From Patescibacteria group bacterium (GTDB lineage: Bacteria; Patescibacteriota; Microgenomatia; UBA10105; UBA927): DNA of 64,000 bases. The position numbers and the translations under genes are program-made. Below, one piece after another: positions 38,538 through 62,691 of this stretch. Each line of letters opens with the position of its first letter. Positions within the stretch are counted from its first letter, which is position 1. The notes below the pieces were generated by a model. The model was not told the origin of the DNA, did no database searches, and worked only from the letters and a program-made list of their open reading frames with translations. The DNA lies in contig JBBTWJ010000003.1 of the NCBI GenBank assembly GCA_038062895.1, positions 27,474 to 91,473 on the forward strand, in the 5' to 3' direction.

Positions 38538-40206
38538 AGGTTATGAGAAACCAAAGAATGACACCAATGCTTGATATAGTACCTATCACCCGTACGAGAG
38601 TGCTTTCAAATCGAAGCTCAACCACACTTCTCCCCACAGGAATAATGACGCTTGGCAGACCCTTATCGATTCGTGCTATTTGCCGCTTACCATTTACCCA
38701 GTACTGCCAACCCGGAAAATACGCCCGATTCAGTATAACTTCAATGGATGTCGGTACTTGAACATGCAGCTTCACATAGGTTTCAGTATCTATTTCCACT
38801 TCCACAATAAGACCTCTGTTATTATCGGAAACAAGAGTCTCATGCACAATCCCGGCTACGCTTGTGGGTTTAGAAAATGATGGCGGAAGGTATTCGTCGG
38901 ACACGCCGGATACGCGCCATGACAACTCTTCTTCGTTTTCAAAAAAACTCGCCGGCTTTTCGTACACCTCTTGCGGCACAAATAATTTCGCATTCAGAAG
39001 GATAACTGCAAGCGAAATGAGGACGAAAGCTCCTGCACGTACCCAACGACGGGAAATCCAAAAAAGCACTGACCCACCAACAATCGCAGTCATCAAAGCA
39101 ATGCCAGATAGAAACCGCCATGGGTATTGGACGAAAGCCAATCGTGGCATGAGTTCCCATACTCCCCGTGAGTACGATGTTACCATGACCGCACCTCCTA
39201 ATCCCACGATACTCACCAAACCAAGAGGACTGCTCCAAAATCCTCGCTTCAAACGTAAAATGCCCAAACCCAATCCTAATACTCCCAACATAATATGGAG
39301 CTTCCCCGCTTTAAATGACATTCCGTCTATGCAGCCCGAAACCGATCCACCGTAACCCCACAACGAATTCCAAAGTTGGGGGACACAAACAAAGTGGTCA
39401 CGAAAATTAGCAGTCGCTCCGATCTGACCCGCGACGTTGGTATACCCCATTTCAACGATCGCAGGAAGCCAAAAAAATGCGGAAACGCCAAGAGCAACAG
39501 CGAGCAACGATACATGATGAATGCCCGCCTTGAACGAGGACGAAGGGACGAATGATGGATGAAATTTCTTTCTCAATAGGAGAATAAGAGTATATATTGC
39601 AAGACCTATCACATAAAATGCCACGGCCACGTAGCCGGAAATCGTGTGAGACAGGATGACACCGGCAAGTCCCAAACCTCCGACCCATATTCCAGCTTGG
39701 CGCTTTTTGGAGTCAGAAAGAAAGAATAAACCTAAAAACAATACGGGGAGAAATGCATATGCCCAAAGCTCTCCAACTGCTCCCCGGACGTACAATTGGA
39801 CAGCGTGGTAAGGGGCATAGGCAAAAAGAACCGCCGCAAGAATCCCTGTGAGCCTGCCAAACAGAAATTGCATGAGCGCATACATAAAAATGGCTGATAA
39901 AACCATGCCGACCCCCATCATAATTTTCGTCGCCACGACAGCGCTGACCCCGGCAGCATACAATCCGCCGCCAACATAGTACGGCAGTGGACCGTAAAAA
40001 TTATAGAGAGGATATCCATAACCGTAACCCAGACCAGACACCCATCGAACCGGAAATTGGCCGTTACGAAGGGCTCTCCCCATAACGATGACGCGCGCTA
40101 CCTGCGTATCATCGTGCATCGAAAAATAGCCGGGACGCAACAGCGGTTTGACTGTCCAGTATGTGACTATAATGATCAGAAATAATGGCAAAAAATGTTT
40201 TTTCAT
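38515..40206 (-). CDS. Polytopic membrane protein, GT-C-like HD..H family (paralog).
   Basis: SMHDDTQVARVIVMGRALRNGQFPVRWVSGLGYGYGYPLYNFYGPLPYY conserved N-terminal block. Confidence 0.5.
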   Translation of the reverse strand: MKKHFLPLFLIIIVTYWTVKPLLRPGYFSMHDDTQVARVIVMGRALRNGQFPVRWVSGLGYGYGYPLYNFYGPLPYYVGGGLYAAGVSAVVATKIMMGVGMVLSAIFMYALMQFLFGRLTGILAAVLFAYAPYHAVQLYVRGAVGELWAYAFLPVLFLGLFFLSDSKKRQAGIWVGGLGLAGVILSHTISGYVAVAFYVIGLAIYTLILLLRKKFHPSFVPSSSFKAGIHHVSLLAVALGVSAFFWLPAIVEMGYTNVAGQIGATANFRDHFVCVPQLWNSLWGYGGSVSGCIDGMSFKAGKLHIMLGVLGLGLGILRLKRGFWSSPLGLVSIVGLGGAVMVTSYSRGVWELMPRLAFVQYPWRFLSGIALMTAIVGGSVLFWISRRWVRAGAFVLISLAVILLNAKLFVPQEVYEKPASFFENEEELSWRVSGVSDEYLPPSFSKPTSVAGIVHETLVSDNNRGLIVEVEIDTETYVKLHVQVPTSIEVILNRAYFPGWQYWVNGKRQIARIDKGLPSVIIPVGRSVVELRFESTLVRVIGTISSIGVILWFLITYGKKSIA

Positions 40207-41732
40207 TTGATTTGATATTTCATGCCTTTCAATAACATGATGAACAACACGATACTACTTATCACCGATACCATATCTGCCAAAAATCTCATTACGGTCT
40301 CCCGGAACTCGGCTTCCACCGTGTGTTTACCGGCGGAAATTGATACTTCCATAAATCCGTTGGGATTTTCATACGTAACGGGCACAAGTTTACCATCTAT
40401 CGTGATTCCCCACCCGGGATAATAGATGTTTTGGAGACGCAAAAGACTATCTTCCAATACATCAACATGAGCTACGACCTTCTGCGTATTAAGATATTTA
40501 TAGACCACAGTCCCTCTGCCACTGTGAAAAATGATCCGTTCGGGAGCTCTATTGCCAGGTATCACACTCACCCATTTGGGCATATATTCATCCGCAACCG
40601 TGCTCGTCCCTTCATTGGTCGTATAATATCCCTCCTCCCGCATAACGAAAGAAATTTTTTGGAGTTGGTACCAGGCGGGAAGTACTAAAATAACTAGCAA
40701 TACGCCGATGATAATAACTTTTTGTCTGATAAATTTTTCTCCGACTGACGCCACTATCCACGGGGTCATGAGAGCCGCTACGGCAAGCATTCGATAAGGA
40801 AACTGTACAAGAGAAGCCACGGGATGAATCGACCAAAAAAGCGCTGACATCGGAAGGGCAAAAAATAAACTGATAGTATTAAGCACAAAGGCAACCGACG
40901 TAATCTTCTCATGTTTTTTGACTTTACCGAACAGAAAAAAAATACCGGCCAATACCCCCGCCAGCCCCGCCAACCACATGGTCCTGAACCCAAGCATATA
41001 TTCCATGGGATTGGAAACCATAACGGTATCAAAACGTACGTATTGCTTCTCCGCGATGGCGGGTACCCAAAAAAACGCAGCCAAACCCATGCCCAATAAT
41101 AGCTGCCGCAAAAAACCCCATCGTCCCAGAGTAATGATAAAAACCACAAATACTCCCAAAAACAAAAGTGCCAACGTGTTGTGGCTCACTATCAATCCTC
41201 CTACTGCGATAGCAAATAGCAATGGCTTGTGAGCGACAATGCTGTATATACCCATCGATGCGGGTAAAAACGCTAAAACTTCCCCGACAGATCCTCGCGT
41301 ATAAAGGTCATAGAGAAGATATGGGGAACCAATGAACGCAAGCGTCCCAAGGGTTGAAGCAAATACTGAATATATTCGTCGCAGAGAAGCATATATCCAG
41401 GCAGAGCCTCCGATTACAGAAGCTACGAGAATAACCTTAACGCTCGTCACAAAAGATAGACCGAAGAAATGAAGGATTGATCCGATATAAAGAAATCCCG
41501 GATATAGAAAATTTGCCACCGGATACCCATAACTATTGTTGAGTCTTCCTAAAAATCGAACCGGGAATTGTCCGTCCGCGAGGCTTTGATAAAATGCAGA
41601 CAAACGAATAACCATCCATTCACCATCGTCAGATATATAAAATCCCCGTCTCATCAAGGGCCAAAGAATACCGGCTAGTGCCGCCACAATGATGAAAATA
41701 AATAACAATGAAATCCTGCTCGTTCGTTTCAT
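40203..41732 (-). CDS. Polytopic membrane protein, GT-C-like HD..H family (divergent paralog).
   Basis: SDDGEWMVIRLSAFYQSLADGQFPVRFLGRLNNSYGYPVANFLYP. ATGA overlap with the downstream paralog. Confidence 0.45.
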   Translation of the reverse strand: MKRTSRISLLFIFIIVAALAGILWPLMRRGFYISDDGEWMVIRLSAFYQSLADGQFPVRFLGRLNNSYGYPVANFLYPGFLYIGSILHFFGLSFVTSVKVILVASVIGGSAWIYASLRRIYSVFASTLGTLAFIGSPYLLYDLYTRGSVGEVLAFLPASMGIYSIVAHKPLLFAIAVGGLIVSHNTLALLFLGVFVVFIITLGRWGFLRQLLLGMGLAAFFWVPAIAEKQYVRFDTVMVSNPMEYMLGFRTMWLAGLAGVLAGIFFLFGKVKKHEKITSVAFVLNTISLFFALPMSALFWSIHPVASLVQFPYRMLAVAALMTPWIVASVGEKFIRQKVIIIGVLLVILVLPAWYQLQKISFVMREEGYYTTNEGTSTVADEYMPKWVSVIPGNRAPERIIFHSGRGTVVYKYLNTQKVVAHVDVLEDSLLRLQNIYYPGWGITIDGKLVPVTYENPNGFMEVSISAGKHTVEAEFRETVMRFLADMVSVISSIVLFIMLLKGMKYQIK

Positions 41733-43270
41733 GGATATTTTAATGGCTTAGATGTAGAAGAATTCGTTGCGGTAAATGTTTCTATTTTATACAGCCGGAG
41801 CGTACGGTCTTTTCTCAAACCCTTCGGATAGGAAGCCACGAGCGTGAGTGGCCAACCCAGCGGAACATCTTTAGGGTCATTGGCGACTAAATAGGTGGGG
41901 TAACGTTTAGCCGACTCAACAACCTCCGGGGGTGGAGTTTCAGTGAGCGGCCATACCCCATGAATCTCAATATTTGGTTTATCCACAAGCCAAATTTCAA
42001 GTCCATATGGGAGCAGACCGAATGTTCCTTCTGTATACACAACCACCTTTCCCTTCGCGGACTCTTGAAGAATAAAGTCACGGACTTCGCTCACCCCCCA
42101 TCCCGCCGGCCAATCATTGATGTACTGACCTCGATCTGCTTGAGGAATCAATGCATGGGTCGGAGAAGTCAACAGAAGGTAATCCGTCCAGATGCTTGGC
42201 AATATAAGTACACCCAAAAGTATCAATCCAAACATAGTTTTCTTCCATCGCAAGACAAGGGAATCTATGGTAAGACAAGCGAGAACCAAAAGTGGCATCG
42301 TCATGAAAAGAATAAATCGTGGGTAAAGTATCCTCCCAAAGAGCGCGAGCGCCACAAAGGGTGCTAACCACCAAACATAGAGCAATAGCTTTTCCCTCGT
42401 ATGTTTCCAAAACGTGAATGCCGGCAATAATACAGCAATCCAAACCGGCCATGTGAGGTAATGAATAAGCCAATCAAACATGCCGCGGATGTTGCCTACA
42501 AAAAACTCCATCGGGTGCTTGATCCATTCTCCAATTGGATAAATAAATACCGCATCTTTTTGTGCCACTATATGAAATAGCGGCGAAAGCCGTAAAACGC
42601 TATACATCGCCTGCGAAATAACAGCCGCCACGCCCACGTAGATCATCCATCTGCCTAAACGCTTGAAGCGATCCGCTTGGCGCATATCAAAAAGGATGAG
42701 AGACGCCGGTATCATATAAAGACTCAAAAATCCTGACGATTTATTGAGCATCCCAAGTCCGAGCGTCATCCCCAAGATAAGCGCGGTGTCCAGCCGAATC
42801 CGCCGTACAAGATGAACGGTAAAGTAGAGACTCCAAATTGATAGCATCGCCGTGAGTGAATCATAAAGAGCCATCCGGTCATACACCAGCGCAAACGGGC
42901 TGATAAGATAGAGGATACTTGCAAAGAGGCCGATCCTGGTATTTCTAAATACTTCCCGGCCCAAAAAAAACATTCCTATAAGGCCGCCAAATCCTGCAAA
43001 AACAGAAACAAGCCTCCCCGCAAAAATAGGGTCCGCAATCAAGCGCATCAACACCATCGCGATCCATGTATAGAGTGGTTGTTTGCCGTCAACCAGAGAG
43101 ATGAAGCGCCATGCAGCGTCCCGGCTGCCAATCTGCGACCAGCGGATGTAGATGGCCTCATCAGTAAATATAGGGAGGCTGGTGAGGTTATAAACCCGTG
43201 TCAGGAAAAAAATTCCAAAGACCAACGCTCCTCCCCCGATCCACCACCAAAATGACCGTTTTGAAGCCAT
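41729..43270 (-). CDS. GT39/ArnT/PMT-like glycosyltransferase.
   Basis: LPIFTDEAIYIRW motif and polytopic profile. Confidence 0.55.
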   Translation of the reverse strand: MASKRSFWWWIGGGALVFGIFFLTRVYNLTSLPIFTDEAIYIRWSQIGSRDAAWRFISLVDGKQPLYTWIAMVLMRLIADPIFAGRLVSVFAGFGGLIGMFFLGREVFRNTRIGLFASILYLISPFALVYDRMALYDSLTAMLSIWSLYFTVHLVRRIRLDTALILGMTLGLGMLNKSSGFLSLYMIPASLILFDMRQADRFKRLGRWMIYVGVAAVISQAMYSVLRLSPLFHIVAQKDAVFIYPIGEWIKHPMEFFVGNIRGMFDWLIHYLTWPVWIAVLLPAFTFWKHTREKLLLYVWWLAPFVALALFGRILYPRFILFMTMPLLVLACLTIDSLVLRWKKTMFGLILLGVLILPSIWTDYLLLTSPTHALIPQADRGQYINDWPAGWGVSEVRDFILQESAKGKVVVYTEGTFGLLPYGLEIWLVDKPNIEIHGVWPLTETPPPEVVESAKRYPTYLVANDPKDVPLGWPLTLVASYPKGLRKDRTLRLYKIETFTATNSSTSKPLKYP

Positions 43271-43286
43271 ATGTGAACATTATATC

Positions 43287-44435
43287 CTACTTCTTCCATA
43301 CATACACCTTACCCAAGCCTAACAAAAGCAAAGGAATGCCCACGGGCACGAGAGTCACTAACCATTTGAGAATCGGAACCGGCGCATTCCAGTTGCCATA
43401 ATAGAGGTAGGGGGCATAACGAAGCAGAAGCGCAAACGAATACCAACCGGCAAACACGGTGAGCCATTTCTTGGAAGGAAGCACTGCAACAAAAGGCATG
43501 AGCCATATCCAGTACCACGGCAGCGGCTCGCGCTTCGTTAGAACGAAAAGAAATCCAACACCCATTACGACCAAAGACCACACTCTCCAATTTATGGTTT
43601 TGCGATGTCCAACAAAAAAAATGGGAAGAAGGGTCACCGTCATGAGCTTCACGGCCACAGACAAGCACAACATCAGCCACGATGCAACGCGCTTTTTTTC
43701 AAGAAATAAAACAATAGCCCACACCGAAAAAGCCATCATGGCAATATCGTTATGTGCACTTACCAGGCTTTCAATAATGACCAAAGGGTTGAGCGCAAAG
43801 ACAGCGGTTCCAAAAACCGCAAGCTTAGGCTCTACCCGCTCCAGTATCCTTTCTACTCCCTTTACTGCGCAAATATAAAAGAAAGCAACCAATATCTTGA
43901 GATTCCATACGATCAAAAGAAATTTCCCAAAACCCAATAGGTAGGCCGGGAGAGTGAAAACAATCCAAATAGGCGTATATGCGCTTGGCAGATGGGTCCA
44001 ACGCATGACGGAAATCAACGGATCAATACCGGCAAATTGCAATGGAATAACCTCGTATGGGTTTTTGTGATATACAAGCACAGTTTTTGCCGTAAATACA
44101 TAGTTAAACAGGTCATAGGAGAATGCTGGGTAGGAAAATACCAATAAAACAGTTACAATACATATAATTTTCCAAAGATTTTTGGCCGGCAATAAACCTT
44201 TGTCTGTCACCCGAAGCGCTAATGCGTAAAGGATGAACCAAAAACCGATAATTCCCACAAATAACGAGGTCGAGAAAGGGCGTTGATAATACCCTATATG
44301 TTGAAAGGTCTCCTGAATTGTCTGAAGTAATCCTGCAGAAGACAACGTGAGGCTTAAGTCTACCTGGGTATAGGAATAAAAAAACAGAACAATTGAGGCT
44401 ATGACATAACCGAACAGTAAAATTGAAAATTTCAT
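43287..44435 (-). CDS. DUF2029/GT87-like polytopic membrane protein (paralog of 4636..5748).
   Basis: SYDLFNYVFTAKTVLVYHKNPYE block shared with the 4.6-kb paralog. Start refined to MKFSILLFGYV (track 44540), giving an ATGA overlap with the GtrB-like gene. Confidence 0.45.
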   Translation of the reverse strand: MKFSILLFGYVIASIVLFFYSYTQVDLSLTLSSAGLLQTIQETFQHIGYYQRPFSTSLFVGIIGFWFILYALALRVTDKGLLPAKNLWKIICIVTVLLVFSYPAFSYDLFNYVFTAKTVLVYHKNPYEVIPLQFAGIDPLISVMRWTHLPSAYTPIWIVFTLPAYLLGFGKFLLIVWNLKILVAFFYICAVKGVERILERVEPKLAVFGTAVFALNPLVIIESLVSAHNDIAMMAFSVWAIVLFLEKKRVASWLMLCLSVAVKLMTVTLLPIFFVGHRKTINWRVWSLVVMGVGFLFVLTKREPLPWYWIWLMPFVAVLPSKKWLTVFAGWYSFALLLRYAPYLYYGNWNAPVPILKWLVTLVPVGIPLLLLGLGKVYVWKK

Positions 44436-45184
44436 TGATATATTCCTCTCCATGCATTCATACGAATTTTTAGGATGTCCATAAGCCCCTGCCATGAATC
44501 TTTGATCGGACTGACGCGCCGGGTTTCCACATAATGCCACTCGACTGAAACCTCTTTTATATGAAAACCGAGCTGTTTTGCAACAAACAACATTTCTATA
44601 TCAAATCCGGCGGTGACCATAGAACCCTGGACGACGTGATTGTTTCCATAGAGTTTGAGCCGGCCAAAAATTTTCCGTACCACAGCATGACGAAACGCTT
44701 TAAATCCACATTGCGTGTCCGTAATGCCATGAAGTCCCAAAACAATTGACCGAAGCCACATAAATCCCCTTGCCATGGCAATCCGCGTAAGCGGGGCTCC
44801 CTCGCGCCTTTTACTCCTCGAGCCAATTACCACATCAAAACCTTTATCAAACCAGGGAAATAATTTTTCCACTTCGCCAATAGGAGTAGCCTGATCCAAA
44901 TCAGTAAAAAGCACAATATCTCCCCGGGCTTCTAAACTACCGGTAACAACCGTCGCCGCCTTACCCTGGTGCGGATTATGCATGACACGAAACCCGGAAG
45001 TTGCATGCGCATATTCATCCAAAAGTTTAGATGTTTCATCAGTAGAGCCATCATCGACAAGGATAACTTCCCAGCTATACTTGCGGCTTTCCATGAAGCG
45101 GGACACCTTATCAAGAGCTCCTAAACGAATATTGGTTTCCTCGTTATACGCAGGAATTACTATAGACAAAAAGGGACTTGCCAT
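44432..45184 (-). CDS. GT2 polyprenyl-phosphate sugar synthase (GtrB/Dpm1-like).
   Basis: LSIVIPAYNEETNI...ILVDDGSTDET...DLDQATP...DTQCGFKAF. Confidence 0.7.
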   Translation of the reverse strand: MASPFLSIVIPAYNEETNIRLGALDKVSRFMESRKYSWEVILVDDGSTDETSKLLDEYAHATSGFRVMHNPHQGKAATVVTGSLEARGDIVLFTDLDQATPIGEVEKLFPWFDKGFDVVIGSRSKRREGAPLTRIAMARGFMWLRSIVLGLHGITDTQCGFKAFRHAVVRKIFGRLKLYGNNHVVQGSMVTAGFDIEMLFVAKQLGFHIKEVSVEWHYVETRRVSPIKDSWQGLMDILKIRMNAWRGIYQ

Positions 45185-45186
45185 GT

Positions 45187-46761
45187 TTATAAGTGTACCA
45201 GTTTGTGAATCGTCACGAACGACGTCTGCCAGCTACCGGAGATCGTGGCAGTCCCGAAGCCTGCAATTTCCCAAAGAGGGTGACCGAGCGGCTTACAATC
45301 AGGAATCTCGCAAATAACAATGAGCTGGTCAGTCACGGTTTTTCTCTGCGGATCTTTAAATTCAGCTTCTATGGTAACCGGTGGACTTCCCCAAATTTCA
45401 AAAAAATAACGGTACACATGATCGGAGTTACCCTGCGTAACCAGGGCGAAATTAAACGGCCTTCCCTCCGTTTTATCGATTGCTTCTTTGGCAATGGCCC
45501 TGGCTTGTGCGAGTTGATTGTTCGGCGCATACTGAAACGGCTGACCCTGCCAATTCCACCATAGTAAAAAAACGGTTATGCCCATCGAAACTGCCGTCCC
45601 GATAAAACGAATTTGCTTCAGGCGATACAAAATGAGCCCTGTCACCAAAAATGGCAACGCGAACCAAATTCCGAAATAGTAATCATAAATCGCTCGTTTA
45701 TAAAACCCAAATAATACGGTAACTGCAATGCCCCAAAGTAACAGGAGTAATGACGACTGTCTCCACCTTGAATTATGACCCCTCCAGAGAGCTCCCCAGA
45801 CTAACAGAATCAGGCCCGTCGCGATGATTCCGACTATTCCCCAATGCCAAACTCCCTGCTGCCAACCCGGAATATCCGACCAGATTTCCGGCTGCGGAAA
45901 ACGCAATACGAGTCGTCCGACGAGTCGATATAATACTTCTTTGGCTATGTTTGAGTATTTCTCGCCGTCCAGTCCTGTATCTTTTCCCGCAAGGACAAAT
46001 CGCATGATCGACTGCGTATTGGGAAACCCATGGCGCAACTCAAACAGGAGAAACGGTGCATATCCTATCACAAACCCTATAACAGAAACCGCCAAACTTC
46101 GAATCTTCATCCCCACTTTACCCTGAACAATAAGCCAAAGGGCAGCAACCGGAAAAAGGAACAAAAAAAGATAATGCAGCTGAAGACCAATACCCATAGA
46201 TACTCCAACCCAAAAGACATTTCGCAGCCTCCCGTCGTTGGTGTTCTTCCATAAAAGATATATGGTCAAAAGAGAAAAAAACGGGACGATGTTGGGATTC
46301 CACGATGACCTTGAGTATGCAATCACGACGGGCGACAACGCATACAGCGCGCTCGCTGTAATTCCTACCCACGGATGAAACATATCCCGACCCGATCGAT
46401 AGACGAGGTATACGGTTGCCACGCCGAATAAGGCAACCATCACTGCCGGACCTGTGGGATCAAGTCTCCATGCCCAAAGAAAAGGCATCATGAAATAATA
46501 GTAGATAGGTCCCAAAAAAAATCCGCCCACGGAGGCCGTCGGCCCCAATAAGGTCCATTTATGGTCAACAATCATCTGCTTCACCACTAATACATCGCGC
46601 CCTTCATCTCCTAAAAACGTCATATAGCCGGAAATGTTGTGGAGACGTAGATAAGCAGCTACGAAAAGAATAACTACTATCAGCCATTCAGACCAAGGAA
46701 CATTCTGAAACTTTTGACTTATTTTTTCCATATCACTTTTGAATACATGGTGTAATTCCAA
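45187..46761 (-). CDS. GT39/PMT-like glycosyltransferase.
   Basis: FLGDEGRDVLVVKQM motif and polytopic profile. Confidence 0.55.
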   Translation of the reverse strand: MELHHVFKSDMEKISQKFQNVPWSEWLIVVILFVAAYLRLHNISGYMTFLGDEGRDVLVVKQMIVDHKWTLLGPTASVGGFFLGPIYYYFMMPFLWAWRLDPTGPAVMVALFGVATVYLVYRSGRDMFHPWVGITASALYALSPVVIAYSRSSWNPNIVPFFSLLTIYLLWKNTNDGRLRNVFWVGVSMGIGLQLHYLFLFLFPVAALWLIVQGKVGMKIRSLAVSVIGFVIGYAPFLLFELRHGFPNTQSIMRFVLAGKDTGLDGEKYSNIAKEVLYRLVGRLVLRFPQPEIWSDIPGWQQGVWHWGIVGIIATGLILLVWGALWRGHNSRWRQSSLLLLLWGIAVTVLFGFYKRAIYDYYFGIWFALPFLVTGLILYRLKQIRFIGTAVSMGITVFLLWWNWQGQPFQYAPNNQLAQARAIAKEAIDKTEGRPFNFALVTQGNSDHVYRYFFEIWGSPPVTIEAEFKDPQRKTVTDQLIVICEIPDCKPLGHPLWEIAGFGTATISGSWQTSFVTIHKLVHL

Positions 46762-47828
46762 AGGAGACCGATTCCTACACCTAAGATATAAAACCAGCGA
46801 TAAACAGAAACCCCAAAAACCATGGATCCTATCCAGACGGTTCCTGACTGTATGAGTACGGCGCCCAGAGAGGTTGTGTTAAATTGCAGAAATTTTGCGA
46901 TCGCATCAAATCCACGGACTTTACGTGTCCCGAATGTCCAGGAATTATTCAGAATAAAATTAGAAATGATGGCAAGTTCTGCTCCTAAACCGCTCCCAAT
47001 AGCAGGATGGAATCCATTGTGAACGAAAACCTCTAATATAAATGTATTAATGATAAAACCGAGACTACCGACTACGAGAAATTTACCAAACGATCCCGTG
47101 ACTATTTGCTTCACGCGTTGCTCAATGACATACTGCAGCACGTCACGAATATATTGAGATGGTGCTATCTTAGAATGTCCAAACTTTCTATCCGTGAAGC
47201 GAATCGGAACCTCTATAATTTTTGCGCCACGCAGTATCGATTTGTGAAGATATGCGATTTGAAATACATATCCCTGGTATTTGGATAATTCCGTACGGCT
47301 ATATCGAGCAAATTTTTCTGTATATGCCCGATACCCGCCCGTCCAATCATGGACGTTGGTAAATCCCAAACCAAACCGTACAATTCCATTACCGACAATA
47401 CTAAACAATTTCCGGTGTATGCCCCAATTTTCAGGAATTGATCCACCATCTATGTAACGGCTACCAACGGCAAAATCCCCACCTTTATCCAACGCAGTCA
47501 TAAAGAGCGGAAGTGATGTAGGATCATGGGATAAATCTGCATCCATCTGAACGATAATCTCTGCATACAAAACATCAAGTGCGTAAGCGATCCCATAAAG
47601 AAGTGCGCTGCCTAATCCTTCCTTTTCTTTTGTCAGAAGGATCACGTTAGGATGTCTTCTTCTATACTGATGAACCACTTCTGACGTGCCATCCGGAGAT
47701 TTATCATCAACAACAAGAATCGTGAGCTTATGCCCGGAAACGTTGCGCCATGCGTCAAAAATGCCATCCAAGAGGGTTTTGATATTTTCCCGCTCGTTAT
47801 ACGTCGGGAGTATGACGACGGTGTTCAT
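46719..47828 (-). CDS. Polyprenol-phosphate sugar synthase (Dpm1/Ppm1-like GT2) fused to a C-terminal GtrA-like membrane domain.
   Basis: VVILPTYNERENI...VVDDKSPDGT...QMDADLSHDP. The C-terminal ~110 aa carries GtrA-like TM helices. Start refined to MNTVV (track 47954). Confidence 0.65.
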   Translation of the reverse strand: MNTVVILPTYNERENIKTLLDGIFDAWRNVSGHKLTILVVDDKSPDGTSEVVHQYRRRHPNVILLTKEKEGLGSALLYGIAYALDVLYAEIIVQMDADLSHDPTSLPLFMTALDKGGDFAVGSRYIDGGSIPENWGIHRKLFSIVGNGIVRFGLGFTNVHDWTGGYRAYTEKFARYSRTELSKYQGYVFQIAYLHKSILRGAKIIEVPIRFTDRKFGHSKIAPSQYIRDVLQYVIEQRVKQIVTGSFGKFLVVGSLGFIINTFILEVFVHNGFHPAIGSGLGAELAIISNFILNNSWTFGTRKVRGFDAIAKFLQFNTTSLGAVLIQSGTVWIGSMVFGVSVYRWFYILGVGIGLLWNYTMYSKVIWKK

Positions 47829-47835
47829 GGGGTTA

Positions 47836-48795
47836 TTATACCCGTTCACGCCAGTAGTTGAGAAGATCCTCCATAGTTTTCTCAAAGGATATTTCCGGCT
47901 TCCAACCGGTCTTCTGGACAAATTTAGTATTATCACCGATAAGAACCGGCACATCGGATGGCCGCATGCGGGAAGGGTCTTCTTTCATTTCCACCTTCAC
48001 TTGAGAATAAGAAAGTAAAAGCTTGAGCATATCCGCCACCTTCACGGCTTTACCCGTGCAGATGTTATACACCTCACCGGCATCACATTTCTCTACCGCC
48101 ATTAAATACCCACGCACCATATCACGCACATCCGTCCAGTCACGCTGCGAATCCAAATTGCCCACCTGAATGATCGGCTCTTGTTTGCCTTTTTCAATCA
48201 TCGCGACTTGCTTAGCAAAATTACTCGTCACAAATGTCTCTCCCCGCCTGGGACCGGTATGATTGAATCCGCGCGTCCTGATAATCTTTAATCCGTAGGA
48301 CCGGTGATACTGATACCCTAAATAATCCATGGCAACTTTCGATACCGCATACGGCGAGAGAGGCCGAAGCGGATTGGTTTCCTTAATCGGAATCTCATCG
48401 GGGAGCACAAGTCCATATTCCTCCGACGAACAAGCGATTTGTATCACAGGGTTAATCCCCACCTGACGGACAGCCTCAAATATATTGGCTGAACCGACGA
48501 TATTGACTTCAAGCGTCACAGAGGGCGACACCCATGAGGTGGGCACAAATGATTGTGCTGCCAGATGGAAAATATAATCAGGCTTAATGCGGGCGATTGT
48601 CGAATAAAGACTATGTGAATCTAAAAGATCGGCGTCTTCAAGATGAATTTTGGATTTAATTAACTCGATATGGTCTGTTTTACTTCTTGGCCGGCACAAT
48701 CCGTAGACTTCGTATCCTTGTTGTTGCAACAACAACTCTGCTAAATGACTGCCGGCAAATCCGGCTATTCCCGTAATAAGTGCTTTTTTTGTCAT
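47836..48795 (-). CDS. NAD-dependent sugar-nucleotide epimerase/dehydratase family protein, Rmd-like (GDP-4-keto-6-deoxy-D-mannose reductase type).
   Basis: ALITGIAGFAGSHLAELLL Rossmann motif and YxxxK (PYAVSK). Start refined to MTKKALITG, preceded by GGAGG. The Rmd-versus-other-reductase call is uncertain. Confidence 0.6.
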   Translation of the reverse strand: MTKKALITGIAGFAGSHLAELLLQQQGYEVYGLCRPRSKTDHIELIKSKIHLEDADLLDSHSLYSTIARIKPDYIFHLAAQSFVPTSWVSPSVTLEVNIVGSANIFEAVRQVGINPVIQIACSSEEYGLVLPDEIPIKETNPLRPLSPYAVSKVAMDYLGYQYHRSYGLKIIRTRGFNHTGPRRGETFVTSNFAKQVAMIEKGKQEPIIQVGNLDSQRDWTDVRDMVRGYLMAVEKCDAGEVYNICTGKAVKVADMLKLLLSYSQVKVEMKEDPSRMRPSDVPVLIGDNTKFVQKTGWKPEISFEKTMEDLLNYWRERV

Positions 48796-48878: not shown

Positions 48879-50177
48879 TTACATTCGCCCTACACCATAA
48901 TACACGAATCCTAATTGTTTGACACGATAGGGATCATAAATGTTGCGCCCATCAAAGAGCACGCGCTCTTTGAGCCCTTTGGCTAATTTGACCAAATCCA
49001 ACTGTCGAAATTCGTTCCATTCGGTAACGACAATCACCGCGTCTGCTCCCAAGACTGCCTCATAAGCGTCCTTCGCATAATAAATTCCAACTGGAAGCAC
49101 TTTCCTCGCATTTGCCACCGAAACAGGATCGTATGCCCGAATACCCGCTCCTTGCGCAATAAGACTGCTAATGATACTCACCGATGGGGCCTCCCGCATA
49201 TCATCGGTATCCGGTTTAAATGAAAGCCCTAAAACTGCAAGCGTTTTCCCTTTCAGATCCCCGTGAAAATGTTGTGTAATCTTTTTGACAAATCGACTTC
49301 CTGCTTCTTTATTCACGTCTTCGACAGCTTTAAGGATTAAAAAATTGTACCCGTAATGAGCGGCTATGGCAATAAGCGCTTTTACATCCTTAGGAAAACA
49401 ACTACCGCCGTATCCTACTCCTGTATAGAGAAAACTTCTCCCGAGACGTTTATCAAGTCCTACTCCATCAAGCACTTTCTCGGCATCAGCGCCGACTTTC
49501 TCGGAGAGAAATGCGATGGCATTGGCAAAAGAAATTTTGGTTGCCAGAAGAGAATTGGAGGCATATTTAATAAGCTCGGCGGTCTCCGGATTACAAAGCA
49601 CCGTCTTACCGTCAATCGATTTATGAAGCTCAAGAAGAAGTTCCTCCGCGCGCTTGGATGTCGTCCCTATGACCACGCGGTCCGGATGAAGTGTATCGTT
49701 TATCGCCGTGCCTTCCCGTAAAAATTCAGGAACGGAAGCAATCGCAAATGATGCACTCCCTGTTTTTGTGCGTTCGAGAATTTCGGAGACTTTTTTATTG
49801 GTCCCGGGCGGCACCGTGCTTTTTGTCACGACCACCTTATAACCCACAAGCGACTTTCCAACGCTTTCTGCAGCAGCGAAAACGCTCGTCAAGTCTGCCT
49901 CACCAGACGGCTTGGGCGGCGTACCGACACAGATGAAGATAATCTCTGAAGGGGTAACCGCATCGTTGTAATCCAATGTAAATCGAAGCCGGCCAGCGAC
50001 AACGTTCCTTTTCACTAACTCCTCGAGTCCCGGTTCATAAAACGGTGCTTTCCCTTTTTTCAAACTCTCAATTTTTTCCTTTGTTCGACCTACGACCCAG
50101 ACGGAATTGCCCAGATCCGCAAATACCGCAGCGGTTACGAGTCCCACATAGCCATGGCCAATAAATGTAATTGTCAT
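48879..50177 (-). CDS. ugd: UDP-glucose 6-dehydrogenase.
   Basis: MTITFIGHGYVGLVTAAVFADLGN dinucleotide-binding motif and the catalytic GGSCFPKDV cysteine motif. The start ATG lies inside the left arm of palindromic element 1. Confidence 0.8.
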   Translation of the reverse strand: MTITFIGHGYVGLVTAAVFADLGNSVWVVGRTKEKIESLKKGKAPFYEPGLEELVKRNVVAGRLRFTLDYNDAVTPSEIIFICVGTPPKPSGEADLTSVFAAAESVGKSLVGYKVVVTKSTVPPGTNKKVSEILERTKTGSASFAIASVPEFLREGTAINDTLHPDRVVIGTTSKRAEELLLELHKSIDGKTVLCNPETAELIKYASNSLLATKISFANAIAFLSEKVGADAEKVLDGVGLDKRLGRSFLYTGVGYGGSCFPKDVKALIAIAAHYGYNFLILKAVEDVNKEAGSRFVKKITQHFHGDLKGKTLAVLGLSFKPDTDDMREAPSVSIISSLIAQGAGIRAYDPVSVANARKVLPVGIYYAKDAYEAVLGADAVIVVTEWNEFRQLDLVKLAKGLKERVLFDGRNIYDPYRVKQLGFVYYGVGRM

Positions 50178-50311
50178 ACCAAGTAGTGAAATTTCGCTGT
50201 TTGTGGTCAAGCCACAAACTTATACTATTTATCCCAACATAACTATCTCCCTCCAGATAGCATCTGCCTACCATGCGTCTCCGCATAAGCGAAATTCTAC
50301 TACCTGGTCAT
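50175..50311. repeat. Intergenic palindromic element copy 1 (137 bp). Arms are CATACCAAGTAGTGAAATTTCGC and GCGAAATTCTACTACCTGGTCAT, around a spacer with two hairpins. It sits between the rmlD stop and the ugd start.
   Basis: The arms are inverted repeats of each other, 17 of 19 nt. Spacer hairpins: atgcg-gaga-cgcat and gtttgtgg-cttga-ccacaaac. Confidence 0.75.
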
Positions 50312-50343
50312 AGAAAAAAAGATGACGCACTTTTCCGCGTCGC

Positions 50344-51198
50344 TTATAAAACCAACCGTACTCCTTCCGAGAAGGGCATCAGGGATACCCCCATGGATTC
50401 TATTTTAGTATTTTTCAATACCGCTTGAAGCGGTCGAGGAGCACGATTCTTATAATACATGGCCCACGTCGTGGATGCAATCTTTGATTCATCTAAATGA
50501 TGTGTGTGTGCAATCAGAACTGCCGCATCATAAGGCGAAAGAGCTTGAGCCCCCACAGCGTGATAAATGCCTGAAGCGTTATTGCCCACTAAACACCGTA
50601 TTACCTGAGCGATATCATCGATAAGGGTTGGCGTAATACGCTGATCTGCCGGAGCAACAATCGACTCGCCTAACCGAAGCTTTTCAATAATACGATGTAC
50701 AAAATCCGGTCGGCCTATCTGCACGGCTCGATAAGGAAAAGCAATCCGCAGAATGAGCCCTGCATTCTGAAGCCCTGTCACAAGCTTCTCTCCCTCACAT
50801 TTTGTCACCGCATACCAACTCTGTGGGTTGGGTTGCGTTTCTTCAGTATATAAGCCTATGCGTCCATCAAAAACGAAATCCGTCGAGAGAAAAAGCACAT
50901 GCATATTGTTGACTCGAGCAGCTTCGACAATGTTACGAGTCCCCTCTACATTCACGCGCCACGCGTTGCTTTTCTCCCCAAGATGCCTCTCTTTTTCCGC
51001 AACATCCAAATCTGTCGTAGCGGCGAAATGAAATACCCACGTAGCTTTCGACGCAGCAAATTTACTCATTACGACATCCTTTTGGGTAATATCGACACCG
51101 GTTTCGAGACTTAAATTTTCAAACTGAAACTCCGGTTGCAGGAGTTGGACTACTCGAGAACCGACAAGTCCGGATAATCCTGTACCTATGATATTCAC
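50344..51198 (-). CDS. rmlD: dTDP-4-dehydrorhamnose reductase.
   Basis: STDFVFDG and YAVTK motifs. Start placed at GTG (MNIIGTGLSGLVGS) with GGGGG 7 nt upstream. The track's 5' extension to 51330 reads through the palindromic element. Confidence 0.7.
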   Translation of the reverse strand: MNIIGTGLSGLVGSRVVQLLQPEFQFENLSLETGVDITQKDVVMSKFAASKATWVFHFAATTDLDVAEKERHLGEKSNAWRVNVEGTRNIVEAARVNNMHVLFLSTDFVFDGRIGLYTEETQPNPQSWYAVTKCEGEKLVTGLQNAGLILRIAFPYRAVQIGRPDFVHRIIEKLRLGESIVAPADQRITPTLIDDIAQVIRCLVGNNASGIYHAVGAQALSPYDAAVLIAHTHHLDESKIASTTWAMYYKNRAPRPLQAVLKNTKIESMGVSLMPFSEGVRLVL

Positions 51199-51208
51199 GG
51201 CTGTCCCC

Positions 51209-51344
51209 CATACCAGGTAGTAGATGTTCGATATTTCTCTTCGAAAAATGTGCTTCTGGTCATATATATTACCTCGTGTACAAAAGTGCTCATTGCTAAG
51301 CCTGTGCGCCCGACACACACAATCGAACATTCACTACCTGGCAT
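51209..51344. repeat. Intergenic palindromic element copy 2 (136 bp), lying between rmlB and rmlD. The right arm encodes the last codons and stop of rmlB.
   Basis: CATACCAGGTAGTAGATGTTCGA ... TCGAACATTCACTACCTGGCAT. The rmlB stop TAG is at 51334-51336, inside the right arm. Confidence 0.75.
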
Positions 51345-52344
51345 ATTGCTTTTTATAATATTCTTGATACTCCCTTGATTTGACGCGTTTCCACCATGAT
51401 TCGTGCGCTTTGTACCATGCAATGGTCTTACTCAACGATGTATCAAAATCGCAACTCGGCTGCCATCCTAACTCCTTTTGAATCTTGCTCCAATTAATCG
51501 CATACCGCCGGTCATGTCCCGGCCGGTCTTTGACAAACTCAATCGAACTGGCGCTTTCGCCCATAAGGCCAAGAATCTTTTTGACGACGGACAGGTTGTC
51601 AATATCACTAGTCTGTCCGCCAACACAATATGTTTCACCTACTTTTCCTCGCGTCAAGACAGCGTCGATTGCACGGCAATGATCTTCTACATACAGCCAA
51701 TCCCGTATATGATGTCCATCACCATATACCGGCACTTTTTTTCCTTCCAGGATATTGGTAATCGCAAGCGGAATAAGCTTTTCCGGAAAGTGGTACGGAC
51801 CAAAATTATTTGAACAGTTGGTAATTGTAACCGGAAGACCATACGTTTCATAATATACACGTACAAGATGATCAGAACTTGCCTTACTGGCGGAATATGG
51901 ACTTCTGGGGTTATATGGTGTTCGTTCATCAAACTTACTCAAAGTCCCAAGTTTAAGCGATCCGAATACTTCATCTGTTGATATATGATGAAACCGGGAG
52001 ATCTTGGCTTTCGTCGCCGCCTCAAGCAGAATATAGGTTCCGAGAATATTCGTCGTGATAAACGGCGCGGGTTCAAGTATTGATCTATCAACATGGCTCT
52101 CGGCCGCAAAATGCACTACTACATCAACTCCCTCAAGCGCTTTTTTGACCACATCAGGATCACAAATATCGCCATGAATGAATGTATATTTTGGATTACC
52201 CTCTACGTCTTCAAGATTTTCTAAATTTCCGGCGTATGTAAGCTTATCCAAATTTACAACACTATCTGCCGAATGCTCATGCATCCAATAGAGGATAAAG
52301 TTAGACCCGATGAATCCGGCTCCCCCGGTAACCAATAGTTTCAT
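51334..52344 (-). CDS. rmlB: dTDP-glucose 4,6-dehydratase.
   Basis: [27 protein letters not shown] and strong family-wide similarity. Confidence 0.85.
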
Positions 52345-52814
52345 GTTATATTCTTATTTGTAATCTCCATCCCCTGCACCCAGTCGTAACCAATTTCGCG
52401 ATCATCATAGGGAATACGACCTTCCTCATCTTTGTGGTAAGTACCACTGGTTACGTAAACTAATTCTGCCGGTCCTTTCATCACTTTTAACCCATGCGCG
52501 ACACCTGCGGGGATTTTAAGAATGATATCCTGATTTTCCGCGCCCAGCAGAAACTCATTCAGTTCTTTGTATGTACGACTTTCTTTCCTCACGTCATACA
52601 GAGCCGCCTTTATGGTCCCTTTTACGACATACCACCAATCAATCTGTGTTTTATGGACATGCCAGGCTTTCACCACCCCGGCAATCATGGAAGAACGTGA
52701 AAGCTGCCCAAATCCTTCTGCAAATATGGGGTCGGTGACACGGATGAGCTCTTCAAAAAAACCACGTTCGTCTGGATGCCGTGTAAGCTCCTTGATTTGT
52801 ACTCCATCAATCAT
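52341..52814 (-). CDS. rmlC: dTDP-4-dehydrorhamnose 3,5-epimerase (cupin).
   Basis: HPDERGFF...WHVHK...GVAHGL motifs. ATGA overlap with rmlB. Confidence 0.8.
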
Positions 52815-53548
52815 AACTTCCCCTCTTTTACCAGACGCGCAACTTGTTGATTAGCAAACAGAAGCTCGTCGTAGGATGTTCCGGCGTCTATCCACCAGTC
52901 AATAATCTCACAGAGGAGTTCTTGAGCTTTGAGATAATAATTGTTAAGGTCTGTGACCTCAAGTTCTCCCCGTCCGGAAGGCATCAAATGCTTAATATAC
53001 TCAAATACGTGGGCGTCATACATATAAATTCCTGTTTGAGCTATGTCAGACTTGGGATGCTCCGGCTTCTCTTCGATAGATAAGACTTTTCCGCCTTTAT
53101 CTACTTGAATAACCCCATATTGCTTAGACTGGGTGTCTTTGTGCACCCCAAATACCATTGCACCCTTGCCAGCTGCTTCAAACTTCTTCCGAGCTGCAAG
53201 CAGATTAAAATTAAATATATTATCACCCAAAAGAACCAAAATGGGCTCATTGCCCGCAAACTCCTCTGCCAGTGCCACGGCGTCTGCAATGCCGCCTTTT
53301 GGATTCTGCTGGATAGCATAGTAGAGTTTGAGATCAAAATCTTCTCCCGCTTTCAAAAGATTAGCAAAGTGCCCTGCATGATCACCAGATGTCGTCAATA
53401 ACACTTCCTTAATGCCCGCTTTCTGCATAGCCTCAAGCGGATAATAAATCATGGGCTTGTTGTAAATAGGCAACAAGTGTTTATTTGTAACGAGTGTAAG
53501 GGGACGAAGTCTGGTAGCAAGCCCTCCGGCTAAAATGACACCTTTCAT
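52811..53548 (-). CDS. rmlA: Glucose-1-phosphate thymidylyltransferase, short form (245 aa).
   Basis: MKGVILAGGLATRLRPLT nucleotidyltransferase motif. ATGA overlap with rmlC. Confidence 0.75.
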   Translation of the reverse strand: MKGVILAGGLATRLRPLTLVTNKHLLPIYNKPMIYYPLEAMQKAGIKEVLLTTSGDHAGHFANLLKAGEDFDLKLYYAIQQNPKGGIADAVALAEEFAGNEPILVLLGDNIFNFNLLAARKKFEAAGKGAMVFGVHKDTQSKQYGVIQVDKGGKVLSIEEKPEHPKSDIAQTGIYMYDAHVFEYIKHLMPSGRGELEVTDLNNYYLKAQELLCEIIDWWIDAGTSYDELLFANQQVARLVKEGKL

Positions 53549-53815: not shown

Positions 53816-54724
53816 CTAAAGAATTGCGCCTCTCGTCGCTATCTGTAAAAGGAAAAGCATCACGGCAAAAAACGCCATATGACCCACACTATGACCGGAA
53901 ACCCTGACAATCCTTCTTCTATATACATACCAACCATCCAACGCCACAACGAGAAGGATGAATCCCATAAATCCTGTCGTAACATATTTGGACAATCCCG
54001 ATATATCAACAACAGGCCGCACAAACACATCGGTCAATCCAAATATACTTTTTCGGGCGGCAACAGCAGCAAGTGACTGTTCTTCTTTCGGTGATACGGA
54101 CCCTGTTGTTGTAGCGGCGGACGGAGTAAGAATTGTAGGCTTAATCTGGTAGGCGATCTGACTGTCACCGGCGCCAAACATCTGAACAACAAGTGTTGTT
54201 TCTTCTCCGCCTATATGACCGTTCACCACAGCAAAACCTATATCTTTGTAATCCGCACGCATGATGTTCTCCTTATGCGTGGGAGAAGCCATCCATGCAT
54301 CCACAACTCCATTACTCATTGAAAAATTCTTCGCAAGATTTTCTCCTGCCACGCGATAATGATATCCTGCAATGGAAATAAAGGACCACGGAGTCTTCCC
54401 ATTGGGATTATTGTGAGCCCAATAATCGTCAGTGAACATATCTTGAGCTTTCAGTGCGGCGGCACGCGATAGCCGCTGATCAAGCGCCAATGGGGTAAGC
54501 CCTGCTTCTGCGCGTCTCGCATTAGTGCCTGCGAGCAACTGCTCAACCCGTATATCCGTGGCATACCCAAGCACATCAGGAAACTGCGCGTACCCAAGCG
54601 AAAGCAGGGACCGAAATAATACAAACGCCAAGAAATATACAAACATCGCATCGATATGAAGAACGCGCGCATGATGATTATTGGTCTGATGCGGAGTAAA
54701 TAAATGACGAAGAAAATCACCCAT
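53816..54724 (-). CDS. CAP/SCP/PR-1 domain protein (YkwD-like), membrane-anchored.
   Basis: YWAHNNPNGKTPW...AGENLAKNF...AWMASPTHKENI CAP-domain motifs. Start refined to the ATG inside the left arm of palindromic element 3 (track 54829). Confidence 0.6.
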   Translation of the reverse strand: MGDFLRHLFTPHQTNNHHARVLHIDAMFVYFLAFVLFRSLLSLGYAQFPDVLGYATDIRVEQLLAGTNARRAEAGLTPLALDQRLSRAAALKAQDMFTDDYWAHNNPNGKTPWSFISIAGYHYRVAGENLAKNFSMSNGVVDAWMASPTHKENIMRADYKDIGFAVVNGHIGGEETTLVVQMFGAGDSQIAYQIKPTILTPSAATTTGSVSPKEEQSLAAVAARKSIFGLTDVFVRPVVDISGLSKYVTTGFMGFILLVVALDGWYVYRRRIVRVSGHSVGHMAFFAVMLFLLQIATRGAIL

Positions 54725-54863
54725 ACCAGGTAGTAGAACTTCGCAGTTCCTCATCGGAACAACAAAATTATCCTCCCTTCGTTGATAAACATATTGTATA
54801 TAGCCAACGAGTGCTCTACTTTGATGCATTTACTGCATCAAGCGAAGTTTCACTACCTGGCAT
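54722..54863. repeat. Intergenic palindromic element copy 3 (142 bp), upstream of the CAP-domain gene.
   Basis: CATACCAGGTAGTAGAACTTCGC ... GCGAAGTTTCACTACCTGGCAT. Spacer hairpins: cttgatgca-gtaaa-tgcatcaag and gttcc-gatga-ggaac. Confidence 0.75.
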
Positions 54864-54909
54864 ACAGTACTATCATAGCAACCTCACAGTAAATTACCAA
54901 CGCCAGGAT

Positions 54910-62064: not shown

Positions 62065-62213
62065 TCCAGGTAGTAGAAACTCGATAATTGTTTCTGTTTT
62101 TCGCTCGCTTAACAATTTTGTTAATTGATCAATAAATACAATACTCTGGCCGGTAGCGACGAAACAATTTGGCTCGCTAATGCGAGCGATCGAGTTTTCA
62201 CTACCTGGTCATT
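62062..62213. repeat. Intergenic palindromic element copy 4 (152 bp). The left arm carries the ftsE start codon and the right arm carries the stop codon of the 62209..62691 ORF.
   Basis: CATTCCAGGTAGTAGAAACTCG ... TCGAGTTTTCACTACCTGGTCAT. Spacer hairpin: gctcgc-atta-gcgagc. Confidence 0.75.
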
Positions 62214-62691
62214 CCAGAATTTCAATTTTTCCAACATCCATAAGCCAAGCGGCCTTTTTTGCGGCAAACGTCTCACCCCATACTTTCACCTTTTTTCCTG
62301 CATAGGAATCCATATCTATCACGGAAGAAACGAGGTATGCTGTCTGGGACGGGCCCCCTTCGCGGACAAGTTTGTGCGTCCCTTCACCATTCATCCCGCC
62401 TTTCTCAAGTGTACCTTCCGCAGAGTCTTTAAAATTTTTGGTATCGGCAATTCCTTCAATTTTATCCGTTTTGACCATTTTCGGAGCTTCCGTCGCCTCT
62501 TTACTCGCCAGCTTCGTATTACGGGACAAAAGATACCCGGTGCCTAAGCCAAGGAAAACAAGGGCTACATAGACACCCACTGCTACCCTGCGCATGGTTT
62601 GTTTTTCTCCGACCCGGCTGACGGACGGCATAGAAGACAAAGATGAACGAGGCGACTCAACGGTGGCGTTAGGAGCAAATGCCATATACAT
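62209..62691 (-). CDS. N-terminally membrane-anchored protein, unknown function.
   Basis: TM segment VAVGVYVALVFLGLGTGYLL followed by a Lys/Glu-rich soluble domain. Start may be the internal MRRVAV. Confidence 0.4.
   Translation of the reverse strand: MYMAFAPNATVESPRSSLSSMPSVSRVGEKQTMRRVAVGVYVALVFLGLGTGYLLSRNTKLASKEATEAPKMVKTDKIEGIADTKNFKDSAEGTLEKGGMNGEGTHKLVREGGPSQTAYLVSSVIDMDSYAGKKVKVWGETFAAKKAAWLMDVGKIEILE

Follow-up and report, generated by a model that had tools for sequence, protein, structure and literature searches.

A palindromic insertion at the end of rmlB in a Patescibacteria genome: a probable MITE-like element whose family shares its ends with GIY-YIG nuclease-coding units

In a 64,000-nt stretch of a Patescibacteria group bacterium (contig JBBTWJ010000003.1 of assembly GCA_038062895.1, positions 27,474 to 91,473; hereafter the window), the rmlB and rmlD genes of the rml operon are separated by a palindromic element of 129 nt, here termed element B. 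B is an insertion into the 3' end of rmlB. By itself this insertion is ordinary; the family behind it is not. With a probability of roughly 0.75, B is a non-autonomous member, resembling MITEs (miniature inverted-repeat transposable elements), of a family of small transposable elements that occurs across the Patescibacteria (Candidate Phyla Radiation, CPR). This family shares its ends with units of ~313 bp which code for a nuclease of the GIY-YIG type. The features of the window are compiled in Table 1.

P0002, the closest rmlB homologue (83% identical, 338 aa, ending ...YYKRQYGGQS), is encoded on contig L118, where the insertion site is uninterrupted. L118 has the same gene order, and its rmlB and rmlD genes overlap in GTGA. 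The uninterrupted site reads GCAATATGGGGGACAGTCGTGAATATC and the entire rmlB/rmlD junction of this contig GCAATATGGGGGACAGTCGTGAATATCATT, compared to GCAATATG-(129 nt)-TATGGGGGACAGCCGTGAATATCATA in the window, of which the element-free form would be GCAATATG joined straight to GGGGACAGCC. Deletion of B together with one TATG in silico restores the ending ...KKQYGGQP-stop, with a TGA overlapping the GTG of rmlD. The TATG hit by B was therefore situated 13 nt short of the stop codon of ancestral rmlB, and this stop codon overlapped the rmlD start codon in GTGA. The RmlB protein of the window ends with ...YYKKQYAR. The closest rmlB homologues are 338 aa long with the endings QYGGQS, QYGGAL, or QYGGTS, and many others end with QYGGxx. 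Identical copies of the element are present in five independent Hainich groundwater assemblies, and thus B is not an assembly artefact.

The original prediction, made from the sequence of the window alone, had interpreted this arrangement as a palindrome that was inserted into the operon and donates the stop codon of rmlB, which is borne out by the empty site in L118, the unique QYAR ending, and the relic GGQP-stop downstream of B. The comparison of rmlB C-termini, named at that time as the check that could speak against an insertion, favours it, as the QYAR ending is shared by 0 of 120 homologues. Some details require revision. The insertion had been placed at an operon junction, but no intergenic junction existed and B hit the last 13 nt of rmlB. 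Furthermore, the last four rmlB codons plus TAG had been assigned to the arm of the element. The TAG (51336-51334) is indeed situated within one arm of the palindrome, but only GCC AGG and the TAG are element-derived, and the TAT codon ahead of them is part of the target duplication. The insertion swapped the tail GGQP-stop for AR-stop (four codons replaced by Ala-Arg-stop), and the old tail persists downstream of the element. Since this tail varies among homologues, the swap is probably harmless.

As had been noted, ATGA overlaps are present at rmlA/rmlC and rmlC/rmlB. The direct coupling of the rmlB stop to the rmlD start was lost through the insertion, and the GGGGGA ribosome-binding stretch and the GTG of rmlD were left intact downstream of B. 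This GTG (51198-51196), situated 11 nt beyond the nearer arm of the element, agrees in its position with the predicted start. The RmlD Pfam domain begins at residue 1 of the GTG-start protein, and the orthologue in L118 comprises 285 aa, the first 16 codons of which specify the same N-terminus as in the window. The 5' extension of rmlD to an ATG at 51330 is missing from this orthologue and precedes the Pfam domain, and was correctly recognised as read-through of the element. The 75-aa open reading frame (ORF) at 51195..51422, likewise taken for read-through and described as antisense, is located on the same strand as the rml genes, and its frame still terminates at the ancestral rmlB stop.

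Element B is organised around inverted-repeat arms of 23 nt each (51210-51232 and 51322-51344), which are 87% complementary and separated by a spacer of 89 nt. The arm sequence was matched in 0 of 100 shuffles, and the terminal 20-nt ends agree at 18 of 20 positions. As RNA, B is predicted to fold with -51 kcal/mol (z = -5.4), and the UAUG flanks of this copy would be able to lengthen the stem across the start codon. No promoter- or terminator-like site was detected on the gene strand within B by the respective scans, and no nuclease remnant was detected in the 129-nt core. Like MITEs, B is shorter than ~300 bp, non-coding, bounded by terminal inverted repeats, flanked by a duplication of fixed length, and present in multiple copies with an empty site in a relative. 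An ORF of 22 codons within B may re-couple the translation of rmlB and rmlD, or it may be a product of chance.

Table 1. Features of the rml region and element copies in the window (positions refer to the window)
Feature	Position	Strand	Basis or remark
rmlA	52811-53548	minus	Pfam
rmlC	52341-52814	minus	Pfam
rmlB, present form 336 aa (ancestral 338 aa)	51334-52344	minus	Pfam, homologue comparison
rmlD from GTG start, 284 aa	50344-51198	minus	Pfam RmlD_sub_bind over residues 1-283
ugd (UDP-glucose dehydrogenase)	48879-50177	minus	Pfam
Element B, non-coding 129-nt core, CCAGG to CCTGG	51213..51341	minus	palindrome search; empty site in L118
B, 5' terminal inverted repeat, CCAGGTAGTGAATGTTCGAT	51322..51341	minus	sequence; family consensus CCAGGTAGTGAAAATTCGAC
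B, 3' terminal inverted repeat, ATCGAACATCTACTACCTGG	51213..51232	minus	sequence, family consensus
Upstream TATG target-site duplication, inside rmlB, codons TAT G(CC)	51342..51345	minus	sequence, L118 comparison
Downstream TATG target-site duplication	51209..51212	minus	sequence, L118 comparison
Element-derived rmlB end, GCC AGG TAG = Ala-Arg-stop	51334..51342	minus	sequence; QYAR ending unique among 120 homologues
Relic of ancestral rmlB tail, (G)GG GGA CAG CCG TGA = GGQP-stop	51195..51208	minus	sequence, L118; TGA overlaps rmlD GTG
Shine-Dalgarno-like GGGGGA near rmlB tail relic	51209-51204	minus	sequence
22-codon ORF within B, GAGGT 7 nt ahead of ATG	51195..51263	minus	read from sequence; ends on ancestral TGA overlapping rmlD GTG
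Element A, 129 nt, opposite orientation, flanks TATGA (50308-50312, 50174-50178)	50179..50307	minus	downstream ATG 50177-50175 = ugd start
Element C, 135 nt, flanks TATG (54861-54864, 54722-54725)	54726..54860	minus	downstream ATG starts CAP-domain gene
Element D, 143 nt, flanks AATGA	62066..62208	minus	at the stop/start overlap (AATGA) between ORF 62209-62691 and ABC ATPase gene

A search of the window with the arm sequence of B revealed four copies, named A to D and all located on the same strand; the element is thus not unique in the window. All four start with CCAGGTAGT and finish with ACTACCTGG, in case of A with one mismatch, and their predicted RNA folds have in common a closing stem of ~22 bp with z between -5.4 and -7.3. 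In contrast to the ends, the interiors of these copies are unrelated (55% identity vs 54% after shuffling). For A, C, and D the ATG in the downstream flank is the start codon of the next gene, and in case of D the upstream flank additionally holds the TGA stop of ORF 62209-62691. Similar to the site of B, site A is empty in L118 and reads TTCTATGACCATT at the ugd start.

Species-representative genomes were scanned for 11 fixed bases per end (a two-arm pattern of 22 bases) with a gap of 96-126 nt. At least 112 stretches match this pattern, compared to an estimate of ~2 chance matches. According to their record labels, the source metagenome-assembled genomes (MAGs) belong to the Patescibacteria or to the Parcubacteria and the Yanofsky-, Gottesman-, Lipton-, Jorgensen-, Doudna-, Portnoy-, Harrison-, Terry-, and Giovannonibacteria, and many more records are labelled Saccharibacteria, unclassified "bacterium", Gammaproteobacteria, or Bdellovibrionales. 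Carriers with one of the latter two labels are L016, L017, L026, L057, L058, L063, L066, L106, L107, and L110; either these records are mislabelled or the family extends beyond the Patescibacteria.

The short copies are 119-154 nt in size and, considering 127 copies, share the end consensus CCAGGTAGTGAAAATTCGAC and a target of Y-A-T-R, mostly TATG. The two ends are consistently distinct at positions 10-11 (GA vs AG). An exact 4-bp direct repeat flanks 75 of 116 copies; TATG (38) and CATA (16) predominate among these duplications, and TATA, CTCA, TGTA, TTGA, GAG, CTTG, and GATA were observed as well. Most copies without an exact 4-bp repeat deviate from NATG by one base. An identical short copy occurs at two loci of one MAG. 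The arms co-vary, with 1.9 mismatches within a copy vs 3.8 between copies, an observation that fits an RNA stem and transposon ends alike.

In ~70% of the copies (81 out of 116), an ORF of 80 codons or more starts at the ATG within the duplication, to the right of the element in 59 cases and to the left, with CATA flanks, in 22, and about a quarter of the copies point away from the adjacent gene. A census of TATG in the same 785 kb, inserted copies included, places 398 of 5289 sites (~7.5%) at a first ATG and a further 1148 in otherwise intergenic positions. Start codons are therefore strongly over-represented among the insertion sites, which may reflect targeting, survival, or both, and the two are inseparable in these counts. 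Three other accounts of the repeats were rejected. Element length is not kept to preserve the reading frame (length modulo 3 = 50:46:31), the repeated motif is not a coding sequence, as its frames vary relative to the downstream genes, and the element does not supply a Shine-Dalgarno sequence to the downstream gene, none being present within reach of the ATG.

Some loci with short copies display a particular architecture. The 17 short copies of one Parcubacteria genome (LBYG01; L006, L009, L029, L031, L037, L050, L060, L093, L099, L102, and others) follow a single modular plan, in which the left repeat is followed by a GTTCGC-loop-GCGAAC hairpin, an A-run, an AT-rich filler, and the right repeat. 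The GC-rich hairpin is present with compensatory changes in nearly all of these copies, and many of them contain a subterminal AGAAATTCG, repeating the end's inner part, before the right repeat. Two tandem elements with one TATG common to both are located in L034 (near 6247-6377) and in L049 (3547-3815), an arrangement to be expected if the target, once duplicated, is preferred for further insertion. The 296-nt match of L213 is an array of much shorter end-motif units forming a repeat of ~25 codons, and L089 contains 34-nt tandem repeats with CCAGGTAGTAGAGC at 4208-4340.

The coding relatives of these elements were recognised by a 309-nt copy in L033, in which the same ends surround an intact ORF of 88 aa. 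A metagenome scan for the same ends at a distance of 260-320 nt returned 109 matches of 283-345 nt with a length peak at 310-316 nt. About 80 of them hold an intact ORF of 84-100 aa with one sequence pattern (MFYYVYVLQS..LYIGYT.DLRKRL.EHN...STKPY.PW.LIHYEAY....DA.RREKYLKT.QG.RLLKRMLKEYFY). Three of these ORFs were compared to Pfam and assigned to PF01541 GIY-YIG with E = 1e-15 to 1e-19 and 57.7-68.3 bits (cut-off 22.6). The nuclease belongs to the UPF0213/SLX1 branch, and among solved structures the UPF0213 proteins 1zg2 and 1ywl are its closest relatives, followed by SLX1 and I-TevI; the match to TIGR01453 and the alignment with I-TevI are weak. Units that share the ends of B encode this nuclease only, which may act as their mobilising enzyme. 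The long form was matched 0 times in a scan of viral contigs.

The long copies consist of the two repeats and the nuclease gene only. The ATG of the nuclease is situated 25-28 nt from the left end of the element and its stop codon abuts the right repeat, leaving no space for a promoter or a ribosome-binding site. The nuclease ORF and the flank ATG point in one direction in 57 of 59 copies, and in 28 of the 47 copies whose flank ends in ATG the ORF is in frame with this ATG and the reading is open. Among the best 120 of 734 homologue clusters (E <= 1e-10), ~55 were gene-called from the flank ATG, and their products start with MPGSENS.AI, a translation of the left repeat. Long copies with 93% identity occur at unrelated loci, and one locus is filled by a long copy in several metagenomes. 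C-terminal remnants of the nuclease were identified beside the right repeat in two short copies (L013, E = 1e-9; L077, E = 4e-5).

Small GIY-YIG genes without these inverted repeats were also encountered in CPR genomes (L055 4106-4339, L087 5807-6043, and L072 4847-5107). In L055 and L087, a duplicate of the 5' part of the subsequent tRNA gene flanks the nuclease gene, and in L072 the gene is followed by tRNA-like sequence. Apparently, nucleases of this kind have a second vehicle.

We propose, tentatively and at slightly less than even odds, that the family represents an undescribed class of prokaryotic mobile element: a transposon of ~313 bp, composed of two 20-nt repeats and one gene for an 88-aa GIY-YIG nuclease, which targets TATG, expresses its nuclease by landing on start codons, leaves the host a fresh ATG, and yields or mobilises palindromic derivatives of ~130 bp across the Patescibacteria. 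According to this proposal, the nuclease would be the element's own mobility enzyme, recognising the shared ends and making 4-nt staggered cuts at YATR. By its position on a start codon, the promoterless nuclease gene would gain the initiation signals of the host, and the duplication would leave one ATG ahead of the element and one new ATG for the host gene. Short copies such as B would be mobilised in trans. For the rml operon the insertion may be close to neutral, given that ribosomes finishing rmlB could open the RNA hairpin and rmlD could initiate from its own signals.

Several observations weigh against this proposal. A nuclease alone cannot join DNA, and thus integration would need host functions or an unseen partner. 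No GIY-YIG copy was found in the 64 kb of the window. The proportion of copies with the nuclease and the flank ATG in one frame is 60%, not 100%. Nearly all interiors of the short copies are mutually unrelated (111 out of 127 are singletons), and nuclease remnants are recognisable at the protein level in only 2 of 127. About 40% of the short copies, including all copies of the window, possess a GC-rich hairpin directly after the left repeat, for which the long copies have no room. Due to these scarce remnants and the hairpin, short copies were rejected as being simply recent deletions of long ones. Finally, both large scans demanded the same 11 bases at each end, and therefore the apparent invariance of these bases is partly imposed.

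Alternatively, the short elements could be ordinary MITEs moved by a conventional transposase, e.g., of the DDE type with 4-bp duplications, and the GIY-YIG gene could be a selfish passenger that repeatedly lodged between the repeats. Terminal repeats with a duplication of fixed length are the classic signature of DDE enzymes, and strand transfer is not known for GIY-YIG nucleases. The related GIY-YIG genes that travel inside duplicated tRNA halves in the same genomes and the lack of nuclease remnants in most short copies point in this direction as well, and a longer partner would escape pattern scans that reach 600 bp at most. We nevertheless consider this explanation rather unlikely. About 80 of the 109 units of ~313 bp hold exactly the GIY-YIG gene and nothing else, at a fixed offset from both repeats, and in ~0.8 Mb of loci with short copies only repeat-bounded variants of 204-309 nt were observed, with no longer unit carrying a transposase. 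Insertion sequence families with duplications of 4-5 bp (IS1380, IS701, IS5 group) would be expected to possess a DDE transposase gene between such repeats.

Mobility would be secondary or long past if the palindrome served mainly as an RNA device of the host, e.g., an RNase III site, a stabiliser, or a hairpin for translational coupling. The closing stem shared by the four window copies with its low z values, the possible extension of the stem of copy B over the start codon by the UAUG flanks, the co-varying arms, the recurrent hairpin with compensatory changes beside the left repeat, and the conservation of the repeats while the interiors drift are in agreement with such a role, but co-varying arms are equally expected for transposon ends. 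Furthermore, sites A and B are empty in L118 despite the same gene order, the flanking duplications vary in sequence, and the repeat sequence itself is conserved, not pairing alone, including the fixed GA/AG asymmetry. With about a quarter of the copies pointing away from the adjacent gene, no promoter- or terminator-like site on the gene strand in B, and no match to Rfam 15 at E <= 1 between window positions 49000 and 63000, this role is improbable as the main one. Equally doubtful is a spread by homing, in which cleavage of empty sites by the nuclease would be repaired with a filled allele as the source of the element. The domain is related to intron-associated homing endonucleases, as indicated by the weak matches to TIGR01453 and I-TevI, and the same locus is filled in several metagenomes. 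In conflict with homing, many unrelated genes carry insertions at their starts, copies that are nearly identical are flanked by unrelated sequences, and each copy is accompanied by a 4-bp duplication, which is neither needed nor made by homologous repair. For the same reasons of site diversity and duplication, an assignment to the homing endonuclease genes was rejected.

Compared to bacterial MITEs (Correia/NEMIS of Neisseria, RUP of pneumococcus, and Chunjie of Geobacter), the family is similar in its size of 100-150 bp, terminal repeats, short duplication, many copies per genome, long mRNA hairpin, and insertion into operons without destroying them. It differs in the copies on start codons with interiors that are nearly all different, in ends that are common to many CPR lineages rather than restricted to one genus, and in a GIY-YIG nuclease as coding partner instead of an insertion sequence transposase. 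Membership in Correia/NEMIS and other TA-targeting MITEs was rejected due to the duplication, which is 4 bp at YATR/TATG compared to TA in these families.

REPIN-RAYT systems combine non-autonomous palindromic doublets with a single-copy gene that is bordered by the same repeats. They resemble the present family in that a small enzyme gene is flanked by inverted repeats which form abundant short non-coding palindromes. RAYTs, however, are HUH/Y1 enzymes and REPINs lack duplications, whereas the duplications observed here are clear, the associated gene encodes a GIY-YIG nuclease, and the coding unit for its part is mobile and present in multiple copies; membership in REP/REPIN-RAYT was rejected on account of the duplications and the gene. 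The GIY-YIG catalytic domain and the selfish spread are shared with free-standing and intron-borne homing endonuclease genes (I-TevI, T4 seg) and the domain with UPF0213/SLX1 nucleases, but the protein described here is the catalytic domain alone (84-100 aa) without a separate DNA-binding domain. Unlike I-TevI and seg genes, it is associated with inverted repeats and duplications and with many target genes rather than one cognate site, and it would be expressed from a captured host start codon. An integron attC site was discarded, as the ends CCAGG...CCTGG lack GTTRRRY and no integrase is present among the neighbouring genes scanned, and the motif of a JUMPStart/ops site is absent.

Small GIY-YIG ORFs were described in non-intron insertions of CPR rRNA genes, for which the authors judged a spread by homing not to occur (PMC11270868). 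In contrast to the elements presented here, that paper describes no inverted repeats, duplications, short derivatives, or start-codon sites. A search of the open-access literature (CPR MITEs, GIY-YIG with inverted repeats, UPF0213/YhbQ, start-codon MITEs, and the repeat sequence) yielded no published description of the family, although a description elsewhere is possible.

With regard to the surroundings of B, a terminator-like hairpin with a T-run is located on the minus strand at 50324-50341, directly after the rmlD stop and shortly before element A, and L118 has a similar hairpin at the equivalent place after rmlD. Because of this matched hairpin the rml operon probably ends at rmlD, and ugd probably opens a new transcription unit. 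Positions 1-47000 of the window hold no element copies and are occupied by an extended series of large minus-strand genes in tight succession. Several of these possess PMT_2 or glycosyltransferase domains at ~40,200-47,950, the portion that related contigs cover. Runs of 7-nt repeats (TGTTTAT/TGCTTAT and AGATAAC), some of them inverted, occur at the gene boundaries at 144-241, 7353-7383, 7868-7898, 8683-8716, and 11903-11930.

For annotation, the insertion of B means that rmlD was called with 44 excess codons and that the tail of rmlB is altered. Many CPR genes probably have starts that were mis-called likewise, and a borrowed ATG serves as the called start of many nuclease genes. Patescibacteria genomes are tiny and gene-dense, and thus an insertion should be costly; the family seems to dodge this cost, as its copies land on start codons, which they duplicate. 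If the element encodes no function other than the 88-aa nuclease, these units would be among the smallest self-encoding mobile elements known and, as far as we know, would represent the first inverted-repeat transposon of prokaryotes to be based on a GIY-YIG nuclease. They would also provide a compact sequence-directed nuclease that is open to direct testing.

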